19,587 bases of DNA from a virus (Duplodnaviria; Heunggongvirae; Uroviricota; Caudoviricetes), in the IMG/VR virus record IMGVR_UViG_2563366928_000013; one strand, 5' to 3'. Of this stretch, positions 2,147-19,050 are shown piece by piece. The position numbers and the translations under genes are program-made. The number at the start of each line of letters is the position of its first letter. The stretch's first letter is position 1. A model generated the notes under the pieces. That model was not told the origin of the DNA, did no database searches, and was given only the letters and a program-made list of their open reading frames with translations.

Positions 2147-2365
2147 ATGACAGCACACAAGCCAGCATCATCAGCTATCCCAACAACTGGATACATCCGT
2201 CGCTTTCGCATGCCGGAATTGCTAGGTGTTTCACTGCCTACTATTGATAGATGGGTTAAAAATGGCACTCTTCCACGCCCAGTGAAGCTAACAGATAACG
2301 TGACTGCGTTTGATGCGGTGGAAATTAATAACTGGCTGGCAGAACGCCGCGGGAAGGTGGCCTGA
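2147..2365 (+). CDS. alpA: AlpA-family phage transcriptional regulator (72 aa)
   Basis: Size and the motif LLGVSLPTIDRWVKNGTLPRPVKL...FDAVEINNWL are typical of AlpA/Xis-like regulators of P4/CP4-57-type islands; positioned after int. Confidence 0.7.
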   Translation: MTAHKPASSAIPTTGYIRRFRMPELLGVSLPTIDRWVKNGTLPRPVKLTDNVTAFDAVEINNWLAERRGKVA

Positions 2366-3817: not shown

Positions 3818-4878
3818 CCGTCCAGAAGAAGATATTTTCACTGGCTGGTATGTCGCCAAAATCCAGCAATATGACAGCAAAGTCAGGCATTAATACAGCA
3901 GATACAAGCAAAGTTTGTCATTTGCTGGTGGTAGGAGCGGATGCCTTAACCATGTCAGAAATTACGGTCGATGGTGTTAGCGTTGAGAAGGTCAGCGGCT
4001 GCGCCAGAGAATTTCTGGTCGTAGATGGCTTTCTCTTCTCGCGTAGTGACTCCACAAAAACCTTCGTCCATGCGCGTGACGTTAACGAAATGAGCGCGAT
4101 GTATTGTGCATCTGGTTCTTCCAATAGTGAGTTTTCGGAGTCCATAAAAAAGAGCTTGCCGTTATGCGGCAACACGGTTTATGGTTATAAGGCACCTCAT
4201 AAAACGGGTGCCGGGATTGGCGTCCTGAAAATTCGAAAGGCGACATATGACGCGCCGAGCGTCTTTTTTTATGTCGTAGGTCTGACTCACCCATTTTTTG
4301 GGCGTTGGTGTATAATCCAGCGCCTTTGTCAATCAATGGTGGCTCAGGCGGGGGCTTCTTCGGAAGCGCCGGTATCCTTCAGAGCCGGTTACGCCAACCC
4401 TGTCTGGGCTACCACCAGCGAAATTGGCGTTTCCGGTGGTAGCGTAACCCGCTATCTGAAGGAGGCTGCCACATGCTGGCTACTACCCCTACCCAAAAAC
4501 CGCAATTTATCTGGATTATCGCCGCAGTTCGCCGCGATTGCCCGACAATTACCGCCAAAATTCATCATATTGCTGCCGAGTCTGAACGCGATGCTCGCCG
4601 TTCTCTGGTGCACGATCACATCTGCTTTTTTGCTGGTCGTATCCGCATGGAGGTGGCACATGATTAAAACCTACGATGTGCATATGGACCCCCTCGAACG
4701 CACAAGCCAGATCATCACACTGACAGAAGTGATTAACGACATTCTGGTGAGCAACTCTCCCTTACGAGACGAAAGACTGAAGGCGTTACTCGCGATATTG
4801 GATCTCGCCGTTCGTGACGTTCATTTCCTGCTGGAAGGTGGCGAAATGCCAGTAAAAACGGGGGCAACCAATGAATAA
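3811..4878 (+). CDS. long open frame (355 codons) of uncertain validity; may be a real gene or a read-through across separate units
   Basis: A 356-codon stop-free frame is statistically unlikely by chance. Against it: a terminator-like hairpin plus T7 at 4249-4270 and a TATAAT at 4311-4316 sit inside it, and a strong GGAGGTG RBS precedes an internal ATG at 4660. Confidence 0.3.
4249..4270 (+). terminator. candidate intrinsic terminator (5-bp GC stem, 5-nt loop, T7 run)
   Basis: GACGC-GCCGA-GCGTC followed by TTTTTTT, read directly from the sequence. Confidence 0.35.
4473..4667 (+). CDS. small hypothetical protein, 64 aa; alternative to the long 3811 frame
   Basis: GGAGG at 4461-4465 with 7-nt spacing to the ATG; stop overlaps the ATG at 4660 of the next small ORF. 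Could be spurious. Confidence 0.3.
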   Translation: MLATTPTQKPQFIWIIAAVRRDCPTITAKIHHIAAESERDARRSLVHDHICFFAGRIRMEVAHD

Positions 4879-6150: not shown

Positions 6151-8502
6151 ATGCGAAACATTGATCTTATCCGTCAGGTTATCAGTGCGTCTGAAAACAA
6201 CTGGCCTCATGTGCTGGGCTGCCTGAACATAAATGTCCCTGACTCTCCGCGCCGTCATGCTCCCTGCCCTGCATGTGGGGGCAAAGATCGATTCCGGTTC
6301 GATGACAACGGGCGCGGTAGCTTCATCTGTAATCAGTGCGGCGCTGGTGATGGGCTGGATTTAATTAAACGCGTAAATAACTGCGACACAACAGAGGCGG
6401 CGCTTCTTGCCGCTGATGTTCTGGGTATTGATTACCGGACAACGGAAACACCAGAAGCCACCAGCCAGAAACGGGAACAACTGGAAACCGAGCGCCAGCG
6501 ACGCGAACAGGAGCGCCTGAAAAGGGCAGAGAAGGACGAACAACAAAGACGGGATACGTTTTCCCGTCAGTTTGATGACATGCGCAGAAAGGCTGTAAAC
6601 GGCAAATCTGATTATCTGGTTGCGAAAGGGGTAGGTGATTTTACATTCCCCGTGTTGCCCGATGGATCTCTGTTGCTGGCGCTGGTGGATAAATCCGGCG
6701 CAGTCACAGCAGCACAGACTATTACCTCACATGGTGAAAAAAGACTCCTGACAGGTTCGGCAAAGCGGGGGGCATATCACGCCATAAACGCACAGAAACG
6801 ACCTCACAGCATCATAATTGCTGAGGGGGTGGCTACCGCCCTGTCGTGCCATTTAATTCGCCCTGACGCAATGACAGTGGCAGCAATCGACGCTGGCAAC
6901 CTGTTGCCAGTAGCGGAAGTCATGCGCAGAACATATCCGCAGGCACAAATCATCATTGCCGCAGATAACGATCACCAGCAAGGAGACTCAGAAAGTGGAG
7001 GGATCAACACGGGGAAAGATGCCGCAGAGAGGGCCGCTATTTCCGTAGCTGGCAGGGTGTCTCTGCCACCGACTGACTATAAAGCCGACTGGAACGACTA
7101 TCACCAACAACACGGGCTGGCGGCAGCCACAGCAGCATTTAAAGATTCGATGTACCAGCCACGGGGGAAAGGGGCGCAGGTGAAAAATCACAAACAGTCA
7201 GTCGGGGCGCTGAATGAGATCAGTTCTGGCGAGGTGTTAAGCGATGATGAAATTGCTGTCCTCGAAGAAATCAACCGGACGTTTACGCATGTCACCATCG
7301 GCGGGAAACACAAGGTGGTGTCGCTAAAGCCTTCTCAAACCGGCGGTGTATCGCACGTTTTCGAGGATTTATCACAATTTCAGCATTATTTTCATCATAA
7401 ACCGAGAGTCGCCAGAAAGCTGGCGGGATCGGCGTGGCTGTCATGGAGTGGGAAGAACTACAAGCCAGGAGGCGTAGGATTTTATCCAGTACCAGACAAA
7501 TGCCCTGACGATGTTTTTAATCTGTATGAGGGGCTGGCACTGGAACCAATTGAAGGAGATTGCACGGTATACCTTAATCACCTGTTGCAGGTTGTCTGTG
7601 CCGGTAATGAAGAGGCATACCAATATCTTATCCAGTGGATGGCGCACATTATCCAAAAGCCTGATGAAAAACCGTCCGTGGCAATCGTGATGAAATCTGT
7701 CCCGGGCACAGGGAAAGGCACAACGGTTAAACCGCTGCTGCAAATACTGGGGCAGTACGCCGCCCACATTAACGGGGCGGGACATATTTCAGGGCGCTTC
7801 AATTCAATACTTGCTAACAAGCTACTGGTATTTGCTGACGAAGTGACGATCCACAAGCCGTCTGAAGCTGACAGACTTAAAGCGATTATTAGCGAACCGA
7901 CGTTTAACCTTGAGCGCAAGGGAATTGATGCTGAACCAATGCCGAATTTTGCCCGGTTGATATTTGCCAGTAACAGCACACAGGTATTACAGGCAGGGAT
8001 AAGAGAGCGTCGCTATCTCGTGCTTGAGCCATCTCCTGAAAAAGCACAGAGCCGGGAGTATTTTGATCGGCTGTACAGTTGGCTTAATGATGGCGGTGCC
8101 GCAAAGTTGCTTTGGCATCTTAAAGGGGTGGATCTCTCAGGTTTTGACCCTCAACGAGCGCCACAGACCGATGCCTTACGTGAAGAAATCTTGCTGGGGC
8201 TGTCTGGCGTTGAATTGTTTCTTTATGGCGAGCTAATCAATGAACCTCCGTTTAATGGCGAAGTCCGTTTGTTTGCAAAGGATATGGTTAGTCGGTTTGT
8301 AGCGTGGTCGCTTGAGCGTGGGGAAAAGCTTAAAGAACCAGCTGCCAGATCACTACTGGGTAAATCACTTGCACAAATGGGGCTGGTGAAGCATGGAAGA
8401 CCAGACCGAGGGAATGGCGTGTTCTACGAACTACCAGAGGTCGGAGTTCTACAGGCTGCGTTTGCCCGTCTGATCGGTATGGGGGGTTATGATGTTTTTT
8501 AA
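6151..8502 (+). CDS. P4 alpha-type bifunctional primase-helicase (783 aa)
   Basis: N-terminal zinc-binding CPACGGKDRFRF...CNQCGAGDG, a TOPRIM-like IIAEGVATALS...DND segment, and a C-terminal P-loop NTPase with Walker A VPGTGKGTT and Walker B LLVFADEV. RBS GGGGG 6 nt before the ATG. Confidence 0.85.
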   Translation: MRNIDLIRQVISASENNWPHVLGCLNINVPDSPRRHAPCPACGGKDRFRFDDNGRGSFICNQCGAGDGLDLIKRVNNCDTTEAALLAADVLGIDYRTTETPEATSQKREQLETERQRREQERLKRAEKDEQQRRDTFSRQFDDMRRKAVNGKSDYLVAKGVGDFTFPVLPDGSLLLALVDKSGAVTAAQTITSHGEKRLLTGSAKRGAYHAINAQKRPHSIIIAEGVATALSCHLIRPDAMTVAAIDAGNLLPVAEVMRRTYPQAQIIIAADNDHQQGDSESGGINTGKDAAERAAISVAGRVSLPPTDYKADWNDYHQQHGLAAATAAFKDSMYQPRGKGAQVKNHKQSVGALNEISSGEVLSDDEIAVLEEINRTFTHVTIGGKHKVVSLKPSQTGGVSHVFEDLSQFQHYFHHKPRVARKLAGSAWLSWSGKNYKPGGVGFYPVPDKCPDDVFNLYEGLALEPIEGDCTVYLNHLLQVVCAGNEEAYQYLIQWMAHIIQKPDEKPSVAIVMKSVPGTGKGTTVKPLLQILGQYAAHINGAGHISGRFNSILANKLLVFADEVTIHKPSEADRLKAIISEPTFNLERKGIDAEPMPNFARLIFASNSTQVLQAGIRERRYLVLEPSPEKAQSREYFDRLYSWLNDGGAAKLLWHLKGVDLSGFDPQRAPQTDALREEILLGLSGVELFLYGELINEPPFNGEVRLFAKDMVSRFVAWSLERGEKLKEPAARSLLGKSLAQMGLVKHGRPDRGNGVFYELPEVGVLQAAFARLIGMGGYDVF

Positions 8503-8531
8503 TATAGTCTTTTTACAAGAAGATCGTTTTT

Positions 8532-8635
8532 ACCTGTACCACCTATACCACTTTGCTAATTCATCATTAAAAACAATGTGTTATAGTGGTACAGGTCAAT
8601 ATCTTACCTATACCAGACCTGTACCACCTATACCA
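8532..8635. repeat. iteron cluster 1 just downstream of the primase: ACCTGTACCACCTATACCA twice direct (8532-8550, 8617-8635) plus an inverted core TGGTACAGGT (8587-8596)
   Basis: Exact repeats read from the sequence, in non-coding DNA at the primase 3' end; candidate ori-like site. Confidence 0.6.
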
Positions 8636-8678
8636 TTAACAAACGCATTTCTTCTGGCTGGCTGAGAGGGAACAACCA

Positions 8679-8909
8679 ATGATGAGCACACCATTTTACA
8701 AAGTGCGCCAGTTAGCTTCTTCCTCTGGCTGGCAGCTACGGTTTGAGGGGCGTTCAGACTGGCTACCCATTGCGGCATGGGCGAATGTTGAAATGTGTAT
8801 TGACGGCGATACCGTTGAAATCATTATTCCCTGCGTGGCAAGTCGGGACGGCTGTATAGAGCCAACAGATATGGCAGCAGAAATCAGAGAGGTAAAACAT
8901 GAGCAATAA
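8679..8909 (+). CDS. hypothetical protein, 76 aa
   Basis: RBS GAGAGGGA upstream; overlaps the next gene by 11 nt. Confidence 0.45.
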   Translation: MMSTPFYKVRQLASSSGWQLRFEGRSDWLPIAAWANVEMCIDGDTVEIIIPCVASRDGCIEPTDMAAEIREVKHEQ

Positions 8910-9636
8910 CTATTGCATACCGCAGGGAATGACCAGAACGGAGCGCGAAGAATTAAAAAGTTTCGCTACACAGTGCGGGAATGCTGGCGACATCCAAAGT
9001 CTGGAACGCACTTTAATTATGATTGCGCACTGGATGCGTCAGGGGCAAAGGGTTTCATTTACTGAATATGCCAGCCAGTGGACAGAGGCACAGCGCGAAC
9101 GGAGCGACGGTAATCACTCAACACCCGAAATGGCGAAGCAATGGCCTTTCAGTGGTAAACGCTGTATCAGTCCCGGTGGTTCAGATTATTACCCTGCTGG
9201 TGTGGGAGATGAGCCATGTTGTGACGAGACTGAAATCCGCCACGCAGTGACAGTAATTACCGCTGAATACCCACAATTTAACCTTGACGGACTGGCGCTC
9301 CACAACCGGAATGCGGACTGGGAAAAACCGCTTGATAACCCGTCATTTATCGTATCGGCGAAAAGCTGCCTGAGATGGATCAGAGACAACGGGATGAGTA
9401 ATGCCCAGATTGAGAGCTTCCCGCAGGATAACCCCACATCTGACACGTTGAAGCATGAAGTGGAGCGATATAACCAGATAAACCACCAGCACAGTGATCA
9501 CCCGCACTATATCCCCAACGGAGCATTTATTGCGGCGATGGTGGCAAGCGGCTACAAGGTTAAGCCAGCGGGAAGAATGAACGCATTTTTCAATATTTCA
9601 AAAAAGGGATTATGTGCTGCTATGAGTAAAAATTAA
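8899..9636 (+). CDS. hypothetical protein, 245 aa
   Basis: GAGG RBS 7 nt before the ATG; coding-like length and composition. No recognisable motif. Confidence 0.55.
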   Translation: MSNNYCIPQGMTRTEREELKSFATQCGNAGDIQSLERTLIMIAHWMRQGQRVSFTEYASQWTEAQRERSDGNHSTPEMAKQWPFSGKRCISPGGSDYYPAGVGDEPCCDETEIRHAVTVITAEYPQFNLDGLALHNRNADWEKPLDNPSFIVSAKSCLRWIRDNGMSNAQIESFPQDNPTSDTLKHEVERYNQINHQHSDHPHYIPNGAFIAAMVASGYKVKPAGRMNAFFNISKKGLCAAMSKN

Positions 9637-9641
9637 ATAAA

Positions 9642-9746
9642 TGGTACAGGTCTGTACAGGTGGGGAGAGGTCATTTTTACCCACCTGTACCACCTGCAGG
9701 CCGCGCCACACAAGGGTTTGTGACATGGTGGTACAGGTGGTACAGC
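9642..9746. repeat. iteron cluster 2: at least four copies of the same GGTACAGGT / ACCTGTACC core in both orientations (9642-9651, 9652-9663, 9683-9692, 9729-9746)
   Basis: Same core as cluster 1, about 1.1 kb away; candidate crr-like second site. Confidence 0.6.
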
Positions 9747-10110
9747 AAAAACAGCGATTTTCTTTATAAGGTATGTTTTGCTCATCTGGCAGACGGAGGT
9801 ATTCGCTGCGGTTTGGCACGTAGCCCAGAACAGCAAAGAGTTTTACGAGACTTTTGTAAAATCCAGTGTACAAGGGCGTGACGTTTTTGAAGGAGAGACC
9901 TACGAAATTTTCGTAGTTCAAAAAATAGCCTCTGAGATGTTGTTATGCCTGTTCAGCAAACCATCCGCATAGCTGATCGCGAATCAAATTACCAATGGAG
10001 CCAGAAGCAAGGGCAGAACTGAAAAGCACCTGCCGTGAAGAGTAATGCGACACCATAAATATAGTTTTTAGAGTCCATAAAAAACCTGTCAAAACCTGAC
10101 ATACAGAACG

Positions 10111-10143
10111 ATGCCACCAGCTACTGAACGGTGGCATTTTTTT
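10111..10143 (+). terminator. intrinsic terminator (8-bp stem ATGCCACC/GGTGGCAT, then T7)
   Basis: Read directly; closes the replication-module transcript before the cargo cassette. Confidence 0.6.
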
Positions 10144-10238
10144 GTGCTATTTGTTTCATATTTTGCAATCACAATGATGAATATTGCGTTTTATGAAACT
10201 ATAATGACTGTTGTTTTATACAGTTCTAAGGGGGCGTT

Positions 10239-10412
10239 ATGGCTATTTCAGTAAAGCCGGTATTGATAAGTGAGAAGCAAATGGAAGCGATAAAGAAAAT
10301 TCAGGAGGAGCAGCGTAAAAAATCAGAGGTAGGAGTTGCGCCAACGATCCACGAAATTGCTCGGGGATTAATGGATAAGGCGCTGGCTTACACTTTAACT
10401 GGACGTGGGTAA
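10239..10412 (+). CDS. small hypothetical protein, 57 aa, possible DNA-binding regulator; first gene of the cargo cassette
   Basis: RBS AAGGGGG before the ATG; below the ORF-track size cutoff. Strand-then-helix pattern (VKPVLIS then EKQMEAIKKIQEEQ) is loosely ribbon-helix-helix-like, which is inference only. Confidence 0.35.
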   Translation: MAISVKPVLISEKQMEAIKKIQEEQRKKSEVGVAPTIHEIARGLMDKALAYTLTGRG

Positions 10413-10416
10413 ATCA

Positions 10417-11760
10417 ATGGCTACGTGGCAACAGGGTATTAATTCTGGTGGGTTTCTTGCTGGCATCGGTGCGCAAAATGAGAATGCGCCAAAGGCAAGC
10501 GACATTAACGCAACGCTTGGTCTGATCCGCGAAAACAATGAATTGGCTCGATCAGGTGCAAATAACGTTGCTCTGACAGGTCTTCGTGGTCTGGCTGGAG
10601 TTGCTGATATTTATAAGCAGCAGCAACAGCAGGAACGTAAAGCAGCATTCCAGAAAGGTTATGCGGATGCTTATGCGTCCGGCGACAGGGAGCAGATGCG
10701 TAATCTTATTACAGCATTCCCCGAAGAGTTTGAGGAAGTCCGTAAAGGCATGGGGTATGTCGATGACGCCCAGCGGGATGATTATGGCAATCTGGCGCTC
10801 AAAGCACAGGTAGCCTCATCGCTTGGTCCGGGCGCATTTGGCAGGTTCATGATGGATAATGAGCAGGAGATGCGTCGTTTAGGTATCCCTCCAGAAACTA
10901 TTGCTGAAATGCAGGTTAATGACCCGCAGGGCTTCCAGCATTTCGCAGGTAATCTGGCGCTGTTTTCTCTCGGTCATGAGAAGTACTTCGATATCAAAGA
11001 TCGAATGGAAGGCCGTCGACTTGAGCAAGGGCGACTGGATGAAAGTATGCGTCAGGCTGACATGGAGAACGCGAGAGGATGGGCAAATATCCAGAACGCT
11101 CAACTAGACAGGGCTCAGCGGGCACAAATTCACTCAGATGAGATGGGATTGAAGCTAATGGAGCTGGGGCAAAAAGGTAAGCCGTCAGCAGACTTAATTA
11201 AGGGATTAAATTCTGATATTACCAATTTTGGCAAAAATTATAACTCTGTCAGAGCGGCAGCAAACTCTCTGCAAGCCCTTAGCAAGGTAAATACTGGCGC
11301 TGCCCAACTTGGGATTATCTTCAACTACATGAAATCTCTTGACCCGCAGTCAGTCGTTCGTGAAGGCGAACAGGTTCAGGTAATGCGGTCTGATGGCATA
11401 TGGGGACAAATCAAAGGTTACATAGACCAGCTTAATGCTGGAAACGGCCTGTCGCAGGAGGCAAAGGATAACATTGTTAACGCCGCAAAAATCAACGCCA
11501 ATGCTATGGGGCAGCAGTTTAACCAGCAGGTTGACGAATATCTCGATACATATGGAGAAACCATTCCTCAGGGGCTAAGAAAAAGCCTTGAAAGAAGGAA
11601 AGCGAAGCTATTTGACGATGTTTCCGGGCAGCCTACATCACAGGCTGGCACTGGGCAGGCAAAAGCGGCAACCGGAGGAATATCAGAAGGCGCAACGGCA
11701 ACCAACCCTAAAACTGGTCAGAAAATTATTTACAGGAACGGAAAATGGCAGCAAATGTAA
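10417..11760 (+). CDS. hypothetical protein, about 447 aa, Gln/Asn/Ala/Gly-rich with predicted coiled-coil; no enzymatic motif seen
   Basis: Long ORF; ATG at 10417 is in frame with the ORF-track GTG at 10405. No Walker or nuclease motifs found by eye. Stop overlaps the start of the next gene. Confidence 0.6.
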   Translation: MATWQQGINSGGFLAGIGAQNENAPKASDINATLGLIRENNELARSGANNVALTGLRGLAGVADIYKQQQQQERKAAFQKGYADAYASGDREQMRNLITAFPEEFEEVRKGMGYVDDAQRDDYGNLALKAQVASSLGPGAFGRFMMDNEQEMRRLGIPPETIAEMQVNDPQGFQHFAGNLALFSLGHEKYFDIKDRMEGRRLEQGRLDESMRQADMENARGWANIQNAQLDRAQRAQIHSDEMGLKLMELGQKGKPSADLIKGLNSDITNFGKNYNSVRAAANSLQALSKVNTGAAQLGIIFNYMKSLDPQSVVREGEQVQVMRSDGIWGQIKGYIDQLNAGNGLSQEAKDNIVNAAKINANAMGQQFNQQVDEYLDTYGETIPQGLRKSLERRKAKLFDDVSGQPTSQAGTGQAKAATGGISEGATATNPKTGQKIIYRNGKWQQM

Positions 11761-13862
11761 TCTTACCGGAAGGTTTTGTGCTCGATGAACAACCTGATAA
11801 CTCACAGTTTCCTGATAGTTCACAGCTTCCTGATGGTTTTGTGCTTGATGCCCAACCAGAACAGCAGCAATCACCTTTGGTTTCACCATGGGAAAATTCC
11901 AGACAGGAAAATGTTGTTAATAATGCTAACGGTTTCGACCGTTTTATGTATGGCGTTCTCAGTGGATTGATGGATGTTGGTAAAGGTGTTGGCCTGTTTC
12001 AGGATATGACACCAGAAGAGCAAGCCGCAATTCAGTCTCTACAGCAGAAGTTAGCGGCAAAACCATCAACCGCACAAGATGTTGGTGAGTTCGTTGGACA
12101 AGCAGCACCATTTGTTAGTGGTGGTGGGATTATTTCTCAGGTTCCGAAAGGGGCGGCAAGGCTGGCTGCCGCCGCAGGGCTTGGTGCTGGAGAAGGGGCT
12201 ATTGTAGCCAATGGAACAAATAGCGATGTTGCTTCCGGCGCTGCTATTGGCGCTGTGGCTGGCCCTGTAGCCGAACTTGCTGGCCCTGCAATTAATAAAA
12301 TAGCTGGGAAATTAACCAAGAAGAATGTTTCTTCGATTCCAGATATTGAGGGGATTACTCCTGCCGAAGAGAAAATTCGTAAGTTATCTGCACAAGGCAA
12401 CCCAAATCTTGCCTCTTCGCTTGAAGGGCTAGATCTAAAACCTCAGAAAGAAATTGTTGAGGCTGCAAATAGGCTTCATGTTGATTCAGTTCTTCCTTCT
12501 CATTTTTCAGGAAATGAGCAATACCAAGCTGTAGAGCAAGCCCTAAAGTCACGGACAGGATCAGCGTTAAAAGCTCAAGAAGATAAAGCAATAAGCGAAT
12601 TAGCCTCTAGTGCTGGCAAGATAATCAATGATGTTGCTGGTGCGCCAGATGCGTTAGCTATGAGCGAAAAATATATTTATCAGATAAATAGTAGAATGGA
12701 AGCACTAAAAAACCGTAGTGATCAGTTATATAAACGTGTTGATTCCGCTCTATCACCAAGAACAAAAGTCGAAGCAAATAACACAAGCACTATGCTGGAA
12801 AAAATCGCTGATGATTTAGGTGGGTGGGATAATCTTGACCCAATAGAAAAGCGAGTTTTTACAGCAATAAACCCCGGCCCAGATAGCATCCTAACGTATG
12901 CAAATTTAAACAGGCAAAGGCGTTTAGTTGGTGATGCCCTAAATAAAAAGCAGGGGCCATACAAAGATGCTGATAAAGAAGCGCTATCAAGACTATATGG
13001 AGCTTTAGCTGAAGACCAAAAATCTGTCTTATCCAATACTGGATACTTGCGAGATTTCGAAGTCGCACAACGCCTTGTAGCTATGAGAAAAAACTTAGAA
13101 AGGCAAATGGTAAATCTTCGCGGGAAAACACTTAATGGGGATATAGCGTATAAAGTAACGAATTCTCTTCAATCTATGGCAAAAGGTGATGCGAGAGGGT
13201 TTCGTGAGATTATGCAAAATACTCCATCAAGAACATTGCGAAGGGAGCTAGTAGGAACAGCATTAAGAGATATGCTTTCCTCTGGAAAGCGCGGGGCCGA
13301 CTTTAATCCATCTGGCTTTGCAGATTGGTGGCAAAACTTGCAACACAGTGGACAGCTAAAGACTTTGGCTGAACATTTGCCAAAAGAAACAATGAGCGGA
13401 CTATATGATGTATACAAAGTTGCCAGAGCAATAAAAAATGCTAAAGCGCATGAAATATCTACTGGTAAGCTGAATGAGTTTGTAAACAGATTTAATCGGG
13501 TAACAGCTCCATACGAACTAGCAGCAAAACACATTCAAAAAATAGGCACGATGATAGGCGCTCATTTTGGATCGCTTGGAGCCATTGCTGGGGCTGATAT
13601 TGGAGCAAGATTGGCGAGTAAAGCTCGATTAGCTGGTGGAGCAGGGGCGGCTGATGCTGCGGATAAATTAATTGCCTCGCCAGCCTTCCAGAGCGCAGTA
13701 AAAAATCTACACGGAAAAGCGCCTGGGCACATTGTTGATTCACGTATTAGGCGCTCCCCTCAATGGAAGAGTTTTTTTAACTCTCTTCCTGAACAGGAAA
13801 AACGGACCATCGCCCGACTGGGCATCATTACTTGGCTATCTAATGATCCAGATAATGACTAG
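11745..13862 (+). CDS. hypothetical protein, 705 aa; N-terminal PEGFVLDEQP / PDGFVLDAQP duplication, two Gly/Ala-rich glycine-zipper-like segments, long helical middle
   Basis: ATG at 11745 overlaps the upstream gene by 16 nt. Composition read from the translation; no P-loop or catalytic motif recognised. Confidence 0.65.
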   Translation: MAANVILPEGFVLDEQPDNSQFPDSSQLPDGFVLDAQPEQQQSPLVSPWENSRQENVVNNANGFDRFMYGVLSGLMDVGKGVGLFQDMTPEEQAAIQSLQQKLAAKPSTAQDVGEFVGQAAPFVSGGGIISQVPKGAARLAAAAGLGAGEGAIVANGTNSDVASGAAIGAVAGPVAELAGPAINKIAGKLTKKNVSSIPDIEGITPAEEKIRKLSAQGNPNLASSLEGLDLKPQKEIVEAANRLHVDSVLPSHFSGNEQYQAVEQALKSRTGSALKAQEDKAISELASSAGKIINDVAGAPDALAMSEKYIYQINSRMEALKNRSDQLYKRVDSALSPRTKVEANNTSTMLEKIADDLGGWDNLDPIEKRVFTAINPGPDSILTYANLNRQRRLVGDALNKKQGPYKDADKEALSRLYGALAEDQKSVLSNTGYLRDFEVAQRLVAMRKNLERQMVNLRGKTLNGDIAYKVTNSLQSMAKGDARGFREIMQNTPSRTLRRELVGTALRDMLSSGKRGADFNPSGFADWWQNLQHSGQLKTLAEHLPKETMSGLYDVYKVARAIKNAKAHEISTGKLNEFVNRFNRVTAPYELAAKHIQKIGTMIGAHFGSLGAIAGADIGARLASKARLAGGAGAADAADKLIASPAFQSAVKNLHGKAPGHIVDSRIRRSPQWKSFFNSLPEQEKRTIARLGIITWLSNDPDND

Positions 13863-14727: not shown

Positions 14728-15107
14728 GCGTAGCATCGAAATTATCGGATGGCGTATGCTGCTGGCAATATGAAGACCGATAGTATTAACCGAAAAGCGA
14801 TTAAGGAGTGCCAACTTTTCAGTAGAGAAACTAGACAGCATAGGAAAATGTAGAAATTACCCAATTAATAGGTAAAAGTTATTGACACAGCCTGTAGTGG
14901 ATAACGATATGAATAAAAACCACATATAGTGGTTTTTCGTGAGTGATGATAGTACCTATGTTAGTTTCCTAAGTAACTGTGCATTGACATGTGGATAACT
15001 TCGGATAGAGTTACAGGCAACCGAGCCCGATCCTCTGTTTCTCCGCCGCCGATTTCAGGCATGTGAGTTTCACGGTCGGGCCTTTTATTATCTTTTGTTT
15101 CGCCACT

Positions 15108-16085
15108 ATGATTGCCGCAAAGCCTCATAAGGACTATCACGAATTGCTAGGATTGCTACTTGAACGTGGCATGATTATCAATGATCGAAATCGTGCGATA
15201 CGTAAGCTGTCGCAGGTTGGATATTATCGATTGTCAGGTTTTTGGTACCCATCAAGAATTATTGCGACAACAGATAAAGGTCTTTCGTACAGAACAGACC
15301 GATTTCTTACTGGTACCAGTTTCGAGAAGACGTACGATCTATATCTTTTTGACAAAAAACTGCGTCTTTTGATGATTGATGCTATCGAAAGAATAGAGAT
15401 TCATGTTCGTTCAGTCATCGCGCATGAGGTTGGTCGCAATGATCCACTTGCCTACATGTCATCAAAATACATTAATCCAAAATTCTCATCTGCCTTCGAG
15501 CATTGGGTGTATAAGCAAAAAGTAAAATTAGACGAAAGCAGAGATGACTGTATTGAATGGCATCGAAGCCAAGGCAAGGAGATTCCATTTTGGGTGGCGG
15601 TGGAGACCTGGGATTTTGGTCAGATGTCTAAATATTATGCGATGCTTAATGGTCATATGCAGGGGAAAATTATACGTCGTTTTGGCATTGATAATAAGCA
15701 GACATTTGCAAAATGGTTGAAGTGCCTTAATCTCATAAGGAATCGTTGCGCTCACCATTCCAGAATATGGAATAGAAAGCATCCCCGAGTTCCAGTACCG
15801 GATAATGAATACTTTGACGGACTTAATCTCCATCCAGAGAGTTGCGAGAGGATTTTTAGCGCGATCTGTATTATCTGGTACTTAGTTAAACGACTTGGTC
15901 CGGGATCAACATGGCTTCGGCAAATTGCAGACCTTATTGACTCTAAACCAAATGTTCCCGGATGTGGATATGATTCAATGGGTTTACCTGCTAAAGGATT
16001 CCCACGAGAGAGATTCTCTCAGGACTTAGGTTTTGTTATCGCCGACAACGACCCTGTAGCTGAAGGGCGGAAAGGGAGCGATTGA
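15108..16085 (+). CDS. Abi_2-family abortive-infection protein (AbiD/AbiF-like), about 325 aa
   Basis: Motifs LSQVGYYRLSGFWYP, IERIEIHVRSVIAHE and NLIRNRCAHHSRIWNR match the Abi_2 family as recalled. ATG at 15108 preferred over the ORF-track GTG at 15063; no clear SD at either. Confidence 0.55.
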   Translation: MIAAKPHKDYHELLGLLLERGMIINDRNRAIRKLSQVGYYRLSGFWYPSRIIATTDKGLSYRTDRFLTGTSFEKTYDLYLFDKKLRLLMIDAIERIEIHVRSVIAHEVGRNDPLAYMSSKYINPKFSSAFEHWVYKQKVKLDESRDDCIEWHRSQGKEIPFWVAVETWDFGQMSKYYAMLNGHMQGKIIRRFGIDNKQTFAKWLKCLNLIRNRCAHHSRIWNRKHPRVPVPDNEYFDGLNLHPESCERIFSAICIIWYLVKRLGPGSTWLRQIADLIDSKPNVPGCGYDSMGLPAKGFPRERFSQDLGFVIADNDPVAEGRKGSD

Positions 16086-16657: not shown

Positions 16658-16778
16658 GTTGGTTCAGAGCTGGGCTGTGTTGGTTCAAAATGAGTTGATG
16701 TTGGTTCAATATTTTAGAAAAAACACAATAAAAACAACGCTCTTTACAAATTGAACCAACTGAACCAACTGAACCAAC
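16658..16778. promoter_or_regulatory. operator-like iteron array: GTTGGTTCA at 16658, 16679, 16700 (21-bp phasing) and three tandem reverse-complement copies TGAACCAAC at 16752-16778
   Basis: Exact repeats read from the sequence, in the divergent intergenic region between the 146-aa gene and the PerC-like gene. Confidence 0.55.
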
Positions 16779-16814: not shown

Positions 16815-17102
16815 ATGATAAAGGACAGGAAAGCTGAAGAGCTGGAGTCAAAAGGGCTATACCGGAGAGCTGCCGCACGATGGGCAGAAGTCATGATGCT
16901 GGCAGATGGCGATAAAGAACGTGAACATGCAGCAAACAGACGCTCTGAATGTATCCGTAAGGCGGCACGCCCACCAGCAACTACAGACAGATTCGGAGAT
17001 TTAAGACAGGCAGTTAAGCGGACTCATTCGGCTCTTGGTATGGATGAGGAAGCGAGAGGGTACTTCAGGCGTTATCGCGATAAAGATTGCCAGAGACAGT
17101 AA
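16815..17102 (+). CDS. PerC-family transcriptional activator-like protein, 95 aa
   Basis: N-terminus KAEELESKGLYRRAAARWAEVM resembles the PerC/Pch family as recalled; GAGAGG RBS 5-6 nt upstream. Confidence 0.45.
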   Translation: MIKDRKAEELESKGLYRRAAARWAEVMMLADGDKEREHAANRRSECIRKAARPPATTDRFGDLRQAVKRTHSALGMDEEARGYFRRYRDKDCQRQ

Positions 17103-17829: not shown

Positions 17830-19050
17830 TCAGTACGCCATATTCAGTTTCCCATAGTGGAACATAACTCCCAGTTTAAAGCGTTCCCGGTTTCGGTATC
17901 CCCTGGCCTTTATCCTCAGCAGTCTGATCTTGCTGTTCAGCGCCTCCGCATTTCCATTCGAGACGCGATGACGCATTGCATTCAGTATTCCGTATAACCG
18001 TTTTTTAATGGTTTTCGCTGCGTTTTTCATCATCGGCACATCACATTCAGACGCCAGCGATATCCACTGCAACCAGTCATTCCTGCGTTCTGTGCTCCAG
18101 GGGCGATCCCAGATATTTTTTGCCAGCTCTTTCAGTGTCCAGCACTGGCTTGTCTGTTGCATCTGTTCCCGCAACCACATCAGCTTTTCCTGCCGGGACT
18201 CAGTCATCCATTTGTCGCTGTACTGCCACAGGAAGCGGGTACCTTTGGCCTGACGACGACTTTCAACAGGGAGGTGCGGATGTTCATTCTGGCGGGTTTT
18301 ATCAACCACTTCGCCCAGTTGCTTCGCCACATGGAAGCGATCGAAGGCGATTTTCTCGACCGCATTGGGTAAATGGATACGCGCTGCTCTTATATAGCCC
18401 GCATTCATGTCCATCGACAGTGTTTTGATGGCCAACAACTGACTGTCAGTAAGCGAACGGAGATAGCTGGCAAGACTCTCTGTGCCACGATCATCGGTTA
18501 ATGCCAGTGCCCGCCCGTCGCGATCAGATACCACGGTTATATACCTATGCCCTTTTTTAAAGGCGACTTCGTCTACATTCATATGACGCACTGATAAAGG
18601 CTTTTTAATCCGCGACAGGCCTCGCTTAACCGCGCGGGTCATGATGCCGTCAACGGCATTCCAGCTAAGTTTAAGTTGTTTTCTGACCGCATCAACGGTG
18701 CTGATTTTAAGCCATGAGAGCACGAACGATTCGAACAGCAGAGTGTACCGACTGCCGGAACCTGCCCACGGTACAGGCAGAGTCTGGCAGCCATGCTCCG
18801 GGCACATAACGCGGGGAACATCGGCTTCTACTAATGTCATGAACTGGCAGGTATCAAGGTGGCGCCATTTACGATGTCGGTGATCGTGAACAGAACAGGA
18901 TTTCCTGCAGGTCGGACAGGTTAACTGAGTATTTTCAGCAATTCCGACTGTAACAGTAACGGAACCTGCATTTTCATCGAGGGTAAGGGATTTAACCTGC
19001 CATGGTGCAGTCAGGTTAAGGATATGGGCATAGAGGGATTTTTCGTCCAT
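17830..19050 (-). CDS. ISL3-family transposase, 406 aa
   Basis: N-terminal zinc-finger region CPTCRKSCSVHDHRHRKWRHLDTCQFMTLVEADVPRVMCPEHGCQTLPVPWA and overall size fit the ISL3 family as recalled. IS boundaries and terminal inverted repeats were not resolved. Confidence 0.7.
   Translation of the reverse strand: MDEKSLYAHILNLTAPWQVKSLTLDENAGSVTVTVGIAENTQLTCPTCRKSCSVHDHRHRKWRHLDTCQFMTLVEADVPRVMCPEHGCQTLPVPWAGSGSRYTLLFESFVLSWLKISTVDAVRKQLKLSWNAVDGIMTRAVKRGLSRIKKPLSVRHMNVDEVAFKKGHRYITVVSDRDGRALALTDDRGTESLASYLRSLTDSQLLAIKTLSMDMNAGYIRAARIHLPNAVEKIAFDRFHVAKQLGEVVDKTRQNEHPHLPVESRRQAKGTRFLWQYSDKWMTESRQEKLMWLREQMQQTSQCWTLKELAKNIWDRPWSTERRNDWLQWISLASECDVPMMKNAAKTIKKRLYGILNAMRHRVSNGNAEALNSKIRLLRIKARGYRNRERFKLGVMFHYGKLNMAY

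Follow-up and report, generated by a model that had tools for sequence, protein, structure and literature searches.

A probable split replication origin beside the primase-helicase gene of an EcCIMP1-like phage satellite

We have analysed a viral stretch of 19,587 nucleotides (nt) from IMG/VR (record IMGVR_UViG_2563366928_000013; "the window" below means this whole stretch at its full length), which is a Gram-negative phage-inducible chromosomal island (PICI), that is, a phage satellite, of the EcCIMP1-like kind, sited at yicC/dinD. Directly 3' of its primase-helicase gene, two clusters of one 9-bp repeat, cluster A (8532-8634) and cluster B (9643-9747), together form what we take, with a probability of about 0.8, to be the cis-acting replication origin of the island, recognised by its own primase-helicase (Pri-Rep). 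Judged from sequence comparison, it is most likely that each cluster is one half of a canonical bipartite PICI origin and that the halves have come to lie about 1 kb apart via two conserved genes, orf76 and orf245. The origin is of a kind already known (the PICI Pri-Rep/ori), and it is the split layout that is new. Binding, melting and replication in this island we infer from its sequence, from predicted structure and from published related elements.

Iteron clusters and their probable cognate primase-helicase

Scanning the 19.6-kb window for GGTACAGGT with at most one mismatch returns 14 matches, against 2.08 expected from 200 dinucleotide-preserving shuffles (standard deviation 1.54, maximum 7), none of which reaches 14. 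Ten of these matches are grouped into the two clusters, with site starts at 8532(-), 8541(-), 8588(+), 8606(-), 8617(-) and 8626(-) in cluster A and at 9643(+), 9653(+), 9683(-) and 9730(+) in cluster B; six are exact and four are one-mismatch variants (GGTATAGGT three times, TGTACAGGT once). With a degenerate eleventh site that has two mismatches, GGTACAGCA at 9739(+), the clusters hold 11 GGTAYAGGT-type 9-mers within about 105 bp each, and no further cluster of this motif occurs elsewhere in the window. An earlier note on this DNA had reported at least seven repeats in two clusters, in both orientations and about 1.1 kb apart, and it is correct in its coordinates, count, orientations and spacing.

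The first iteron begins 30 nt past the primase stop (8502), and cluster A continues as two (-) sites, a 38-nt spacer, one (+) site, 9 nt, one (-) site, 2 nt and two further (-) sites. Cluster B reads as two (+) sites, 21 nt, one (-) site, 38 nt and two (+) sites, the last of them the degenerate one. The reverse complement of B stands in register with A, so that B is an inverted copy of the A layout down to the identical spacer length of 38 nt, a relationship that goes beyond the earlier note. The cluster A spacer (8550-8587) is 76% AT, lies among the least stable 2.5% of the window in 40-bp duplex stability and is our proposed DNA unwinding element; its equivalent is 63-83% AT in relatives. 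The cluster B spacer (9692-9729) is GC-rich (39% AT), lies among the most stable 2.4% of the window's 40-mers and holds GCCGCGCCA at 9700-9708. The gap from A to B measures 1,008 nt, with the two genes inside. A promoter and terminator scan found nothing in either cluster, including no sigma-70-like promoter, and an Rfam scan of 8300-10500 returned only chance miRNA-like matches on inverted repeats.

This arrangement can be set against a validated origin. In Gram-negative PICIs, the origin is the region immediately 3' of pri-rep, where sets of iterons flank an AT-rich region; a pri-rep-ori segment of the island EcCICFT073 drives plasmid maintenance, with significantly fewer colonies upon ori deletion and none with a rep mutant (Fillol-Salom et al. 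2018, PMC6092414). The supplement of that paper does not contain iteron sequences for comparison. In the 230 nt after pri-rep, the EcCICFT073 sites run as 2(-), 40 nt (77% AT), 1(+), 10 nt, 3(-), 25 nt, 2(+), 10 nt, 1(-), 40 nt (43% AT) and 2(+), which is the A layout followed directly by the B layout with 25 nt between them. In a Citrobacter locus, L014, the two halves are 43 nt apart. The earlier note had described the two open reading frames (ORFs) as an insert between the clusters, and the contiguity of the halves in EcCICFT073 and L014 bears this out. The GCCGCGCCA motif recurs in the GC-rich B-half spacer of L014 (6166-6174) and of EcCICFT073 (about 4190-4198 of its locus, L019), and may have a function common to PICI origins, such as binding a host factor or serving in priming.

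Relatives were gathered through protein searches and contig look-ups, and a contig scan with the helicase half gave two loci. The earlier note had held that its reading would fall if the repeats were absent from related islands with the same primase; each of the nine other loci examined with this Pri-Rep type (seven other genera and a second Escherichia coli strain) has cluster A or its GGTACAG core, and the reading was not refuted. The layout of cluster A is the same in loci of six other genera and the second E. coli strain. Across seven genera, the cluster A footprint shows no variation in 37 of its 54 iteron columns, compared with 12 of the 62 remaining columns (Fisher p=9e-8), and the iteron columns are conserved while the synonymous divergence (dS) of neighbouring genes, at 0.9-1.8, is near saturation. 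Cluster B is found in Raoultella, Salmonella, Buttiauxella, Citrobacter and Xenorhabdus, and its sites and a spacer length of 37-38 nt are kept in E. coli, Raoultella, Salmonella and Buttiauxella. Of 5,426 complete E. coli genomes, 140 have the 1.5-kb region, 130 of them over at least 80% of its length.

The protein that would read these sites is encoded at 6151-8502 (+) and comprises 783 amino acids (aa): a Zn ribbon, a Toprim domain, a DUF5906 superfamily 3 (SF3) helicase and a C-terminal winged helix. Its Pfam matches are Zn_Ribbon_Prim, Toprim_3 and DUF5906, and its helicase resembles the NrS-1 helicase 6k9c (E=1e-10). The earlier note had called it an alpha-type primase-helicase, which is right for the front of the protein only: aa 7-337, the Zn ribbon and Toprim part, align with P4 alpha at 33% identity (E=4e-41), whereas no BLASTP alignment extends past aa 337, the helicase is DUF5906/NrS-1-like, and the score against the P4-family model TIGR01613 (20.4 bits) falls far below the cut-off of 108.7. 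The last 134 residues (aa 650-783, encoded at 8098-8499 (+)), modelled from a 36-sequence alignment with a predicted local distance difference test score (pLDDT) of 87.5, are predicted to form the winged helix, which we propose as the iteron reader. The putative recognition helix and wing of this domain vary among three primase/iteron groups; these differences are consistent with the co-variation of the iterons described below, if too sparse to decide.

The assignment of the repeats to this protein comes from a comparison with sister islands that have the same flanks and a "TOPRIM and DUF927" primase and that occur in several hundred E. coli genomes. In blastn alignments with two of them (L003 and L004), nucleotide identity runs at 88-92% until 7172 and homology is back at 9837, which delimits an exchangeable replicon module (7173-9836) containing the helicase and winged-helix half, cluster A, the two ORFs and cluster B. 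Directly 3' of their primase, the sister islands carry three to four copies of GTTGGTTCA, about 40 nt of 84% AT and three copies of TGAACCAAC, while the remaining island genes are unchanged. Because the other genes are the same and the repeats differ, repeat specificity maps to the exchanged block.

Co-variation among more distant loci is graded in the same sense. The GGTACAG core is retained where the C-terminal half of the primase is at least 59% identical (Raoultella, Salmonella, Buttiauxella, Enterobacter, Pantoea, Xenorhabdus and Citrobacter). Another E. coli island, whose DUF5906 primase is 48% identical, has TGGGTTAGAT repeats (iteron GGGTTAGAT), the unrelated Pri-Rep of EcCICFT073 pairs with the iteron GGTAGAYAG, and the E. 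coli island L008, with an unrelated AAA_25 replicase and a 67%-identical orf245 homologue, has AAAAGTGGGGA repeats. The Citrobacter locus L014, a satellite-like element with Ogr/Delta and an epsilon-like Derepression domain, is 59% identical in the helicase half and has both clusters, with the iteron GGTACAG(A/T)T, and neither orf76 nor orf245. Since L014 has the clusters without the ORFs and L008 has orf245 with other iterons, the iterons track the helicase/winged-helix half and not the ORFs. The repeats thus appear to behave as the cognate origin iterons of Pri-Rep, and the swap of iterons with the helicase half, together with the graded co-variation, indicates an iteron sequence specific to the Rep allele.

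The exchange of the replicon module has its recombination joints at the boundaries of the block, 7172/7173 and 9836/9837. The left one lies between Toprim and helicase, inside the primase gene, and Pri-Rep is therefore a natural chimera whose first 340 aa are common with DUF927-type primases (88-92% nt identity).

The same blastn comparison revealed a second, different and complete iteron array at 16658-16778, 37 nt upstream of perC (16815-17102), composed of three GTTGGTTCA copies with a 21-nt period, 43 nt of AT-rich sequence and three inverted TGAACCAAC copies with a 9-nt period. This is the origin type of the DUF927 sister primase, which the window island does not encode, and the array is an orphan retained from before the exchange of the helicase half. 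EcCIMP1 and ECO-104 have both a perC-proximal and a primase-proximal array, in inverted orientation and 8.4 and 6 kb apart, respectively, and the GTTGGTTCA array is present in 560 E. coli genomes (median, two places in each); iteron arrays in separated pairs thus recur in the island family. We mention as a speculation, and an unlikely one, that PICI replicases of this family may use far-apart origin parts (1 kb here, 6-8 kb in EcCIMP1) in the manner of P4 ori/crr, and that the orphan array is functional, a co-resident DUF927 replicase either replicating this island or being titrated by it. If this were true, satellites in competition for one helper phage would cross-replicate or be incompatible.

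Alternatives to a split origin

By analogy with SaPI Rep (SaPIs being pathogenicity islands of Staphylococcus aureus) and P4 alpha, we expect that, after induction, the C-terminal winged helix of the 783-aa Pri-Rep would bind the 9-bp GGTAYAGGT iterons, and that the protein would assemble as an SF3 hexamer, melt the 38-bp AT-rich spacer of cluster A, load itself and prime via its Toprim domain. Cluster A is likely a complete SaPI/PICI-type origin core, providing the site of melting and loading. The spacer of cluster B is GC-rich, so B would be a binding site and not a melting site. The conservation of B argues against its being vestigial, and its loss in the Enterobacter locus L016 argues against strict essentiality.

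Several points weigh against this reading. The comparative and co-variation set comprises about a dozen loci, and iteron binding by the C-terminal domain is proposed from a predicted fold and from analogy. Cluster B is missing both in L016, where the primase is intact, and in a decayed Pantoea locus (L011), so the island may be able to do without B. In Xenorhabdus, only orf73 is bracketed, with the full AT-rich cluster after it, and no more than two weak sites stand after the primase; the history is therefore more complex than a single insertion. Lastly, orf76 always accompanies this Pri-Rep type in the PICI lineage and may have a helper role in origin function.

The Pantoea locus, from Pantoea stewartii, is a decaying module (3893-5760 of L011) in which the primase ORF is cut to 478 aa; it retains cluster A and orf74, and orf245 and cluster B are gone.

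It is possible, though on the present comparison doubtful, that the two clusters form a P4-style two-site system in which A serves as the origin and B, like crr, as an auxiliary site that is needed in cis at a distance, for example through looping by the replicase. P4 itself has iterons at crr directly 3' of alpha in addition to an ori 4.5 kb off, and the annotated P4 ori (three sites, 14 nt, one inverted site, 35 AT-rich nt and two sites) is the mirror image of cluster A. Such a system would also suit the conservation of B in five other genera despite saturated synonymous sites, the inclusion of both clusters in the swapped module and the two GTTGGTTCA arrays, 6-8.4 kb apart, of the DUF927 lineage that includes EcCIMP1. 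The adjacent halves of EcCICFT073 and L014, however, mean that distance is not required by the family, L016 does without B beside an intact primase, and A and B are mutually inverted, unlike the direct 120-bp repeats of crr, and are served by a helicase outside the P4 family. We consider it unlikely that A alone is functional and B a decaying remnant of a half cut off by the insertion of the genes. The degenerate outermost site (GGTACAGCA), a spacer that is not AT-rich and the loss of B in two relatives would fit a remnant, whereas the B sites and the 37-38-nt spacer have been kept in four genera with dS at or above 0.9, and the GCCGCGCCA element has been retained.

A different role for an intact cluster B is negative copy control, in which B would be neither an initiation site nor an enhancer and would titrate or "handcuff" the replicase as P1 incA and F incC do. 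For copy control, iteron plasmids have additional arrays of iterons beyond a gene, and in P1 (incC-repA-incA) and F (ori2-repE-incC), arrays of the same iteron bracket the initiator gene, the second array being a proven negative regulator. The binding sites of B are intact and its very stable GC-rich spacer is unlikely to melt, as such a role would have it, and uncontrolled replication of EcCICFT073 lowered host-cell growth and viability (PMC6092414). The same GC-rich half is, however, an integral and adjacent part of the EcCICFT073 ori region, within the segment that drives maintenance (PMC6092414), and tight control would be less expected of satellites, which replicate in a burst after induction; we therefore regard copy control as distinctly improbable. 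More remote again is the idea that the repeats are not replication sites and serve as operators for an island transcription factor controlling the genes downstream of each cluster, to which the positions of A before orf76/orf245, of B before the ejection-protein block and of the GTTGGTTCA array 37 nt before perC would lend themselves. Against it, the regulators (an AlpA-like helix-turn-helix (HTH) protein, AntA and Ash) and all the upstream genes are common to sister islands with different repeats, co-variation is confined to the helicase/winged-helix half, the arrangement of sites is that of validated origins, and neither cluster has a sigma-70-like promoter. Least probable of all is a small mobile cassette that carries the two ORFs and has the clusters as its terminal inverted repeats: they are mutually inverted and bracket two genes, but neither ORF resembles a transposase or recombinase, the supposed ends are contiguous without genes in L014 and EcCICFT073, orf245 occurs elsewhere without GGTAYAGGT repeats, and Xenorhabdus brackets orf73 only.

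Three candidate identities were set aside: ends of a mobile cassette (no transposase similarity; contiguous "ends" in L014 and EcCICFT073), operators of an island regulator (regulators shared with sister islands that carry different repeats), and binding sites for the products of orf76 and orf245 (clusters without the ORFs in L014; orf245 with other iterons in L008). The island is also not a P4 replicon, from which it departs in its helicase family, its iterons and its set of satellite genes, the likeness in crr structure being partial.

A split PICI origin would show where, in a widespread family of E. coli satellites, the likely origin lies and what determines its specificity (the helicase/winged-helix half); of 5,426 complete genomes, about 130 have the split form, and several hundred more have sister forms. 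Exchange moves the replicon module in one piece, with a recombination joint within the primase gene, and the canonical bipartite PICI origin would seem to tolerate 1 kb of coding DNA between its halves or to have become adapted to it. With the second, distal array of EcCIMP1-type islands, this makes it testable whether satellite origins need both halves and whether they act at a distance as in P4, and it offers a rule for predicting origin specificity and, with it, possible cross-talk between co-resident satellites.

The intervening genes and the rest of the island

The two genes between the clusters, orf76 (8679-8909, +; 76 aa) and orf245 (8899-9636, +; 245 aa), are both conserved, and the start of the second overlaps the stop of the first. 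They stand between the origin halves in E. coli, Raoultella, Salmonella and Buttiauxella and are under purifying selection, with ratios of nonsynonymous to synonymous divergence (dN/dS) of about 0.07-0.16 (for orf76, against Raoultella, Salmonella, Pantoea and Enterobacter). The orf76 family comprises 12 homologue clusters and has no Pfam, PHROG or NCBIfam match; orf76 is absent from L014, though the iteron core there is the same. The orf245 family comprises 29 clusters, all named sources being Enterobacterales, and has no Pfam or NCBIfam match and a single, marginal PHROG match to a family of unknown function. Homologues of orf245 follow replicases of unrelated types (DUF5906 and AAA_25; loci including L006, L008, L013 and L016) and usually precede ssb, proQ or perC. 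Its model has a helical N-terminal part and a winged-helix-like C-terminal part with an invariant hydrophobic "recognition" helix, and on this predicted fold the protein may be a replication accessory factor.

The DNA of the window is from E. coli. An identical copy of the island is sited between yicC and dinD, a listed PICI attachment site, in E. coli strain PK5, where the genes follow one another as int, HTH regulator, AntA, DUF4222, Ash, small ORFs, primase, the two ORFs, P22-type DNA-ejection proteins, cargo and PerC. The HTH ORF of the window (2147-2365) matches the excisionase/regulator family phrog_66. The published yicC-dinD att core, GAGCAGATTCAA, is absent from the window, which begins within int.

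Downstream of cluster B lies a non-coding stretch of about 400 nt (9837-10238) that is 94-97% conserved among islands with different replicases. Within it are an inverted repeat, TACGAGACTTTTGTA (9844-9858) and TACGAAATTTTCGTA (9901-9915), and, at 10120-10135, a hairpin that resembles a terminator and has a T run after it; the stretch could be a regulatory or packaging region. At 10405-13862, the satellite encodes homologues of the P22 ejection (DNA-transfer) proteins (Inj_translocase, phrog_770/phrog_6704). EcCIMP1 is an E. coli PICI for which helper-dependent mobilisation by the P22-like phage Kapi1 has been shown (PMC11773190), and the ejection proteins of the window fit such a helper; to carry its own ejection proteins is unusual for a satellite. 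The cargo end (15063-16085 and 17830-19050) holds an Abi_2 abortive-infection gene and an ISL3-family transposase where PK5 has ImmA/IrrE and other genes, and looks like a variable defence-cargo region.

Comparison with known systems

The earlier note had likened the locus to the ori/crr arrangement of P4, and the likeness survives in part. Pri-Rep and P4 alpha have a homologous Zn-ribbon/Toprim domain and, on the predicted fold of Pri-Rep, the same order of primase, SF3 helicase and C-terminal DNA-binding winged helix; both systems have an iteron array directly 3' of the gene and two separate iteron regions, and cluster A mirrors the P4 ori. The helicase of the window protein is not P4-family, its C-terminal domain shows no clear, specific similarity to 1ka8, and the P4 type I octamer TGTTCACC has no match in the window. 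P4 crr consists of two direct 120-bp repeats, with the P4 ori 4.5 kb away and upstream of alpha, whereas in the window each cluster is a single copy, inverted with respect to the other at a distance of 1 kb; both stand on the 3' side of the gene, adjoin in relatives and are better described as the probable halves of a single PICI origin. No families of the P4 satellite genes (sid, psu, delta, epsilon, cI) were found among the scanned island ORFs, which have in their place AntA, Ash, P22-type ejection proteins, Abi_2 and PerC.

The iteron plasmids P1 and F are alike in having two arrays of the same iteron that bracket coding sequence, one of them without a melting region; they differ in that their initiators are RepA-type winged-helix dimers and not helicases, and in that the bracketed gene is the initiator.

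SaPIs have an SF3 self-loading helicase fused or adjacent to a primase and an origin directly 3', with an AT-rich centre and oppositely oriented iterons on each side, and the C-terminal winged helix of SaPI Rep reads the iterons (PMC9371898 and the work of Ubeda et al. to which it refers). Features common to SaPIs and PICIs are found in the window, as far as its sequence and predicted folds tell: an initiator with an SF3 helicase and a predicted C-terminal winged helix, an origin 3' of its gene and a flanked AT-rich region. SaPIs are Gram-positive elements with penta- or hexanucleotide iterons and no genes within the origin, and the likeness is one of architecture without a demonstrated sequence relationship.

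The genes of EcCIMP1 are arranged as in the window, and its AntA, DUF4222, Ash, small ORFs, N-terminal half of the primase, DNA-ejection proteins and perC are near-identical. EcCIMP1 differs in its DUF927 helicase half, in the GTTGGTTCA iterons of its two arrays (one 3' of the primase, the other upstream of perC), in having neither orf76 nor orf245, and in its integration at tRNA-Thr (proA/yagU) instead of yicC/dinD.

The origin itself is closely matched by EcCICFT073. Its 584-aa Pri-Rep has no BLASTP match to the window protein, and its iteron is GGTAGAYAG as against GGTAYAGGT here. The two islands nevertheless share the architecture int, alpA-like gene, pri-rep, ori and, further on, perC, as well as 9-bp iterons in both orientations and the same layout of sites, and they differ in the gap between the A and B halves, which is 25 nt in EcCICFT073 and, in the window, 1,008 nt with two genes.

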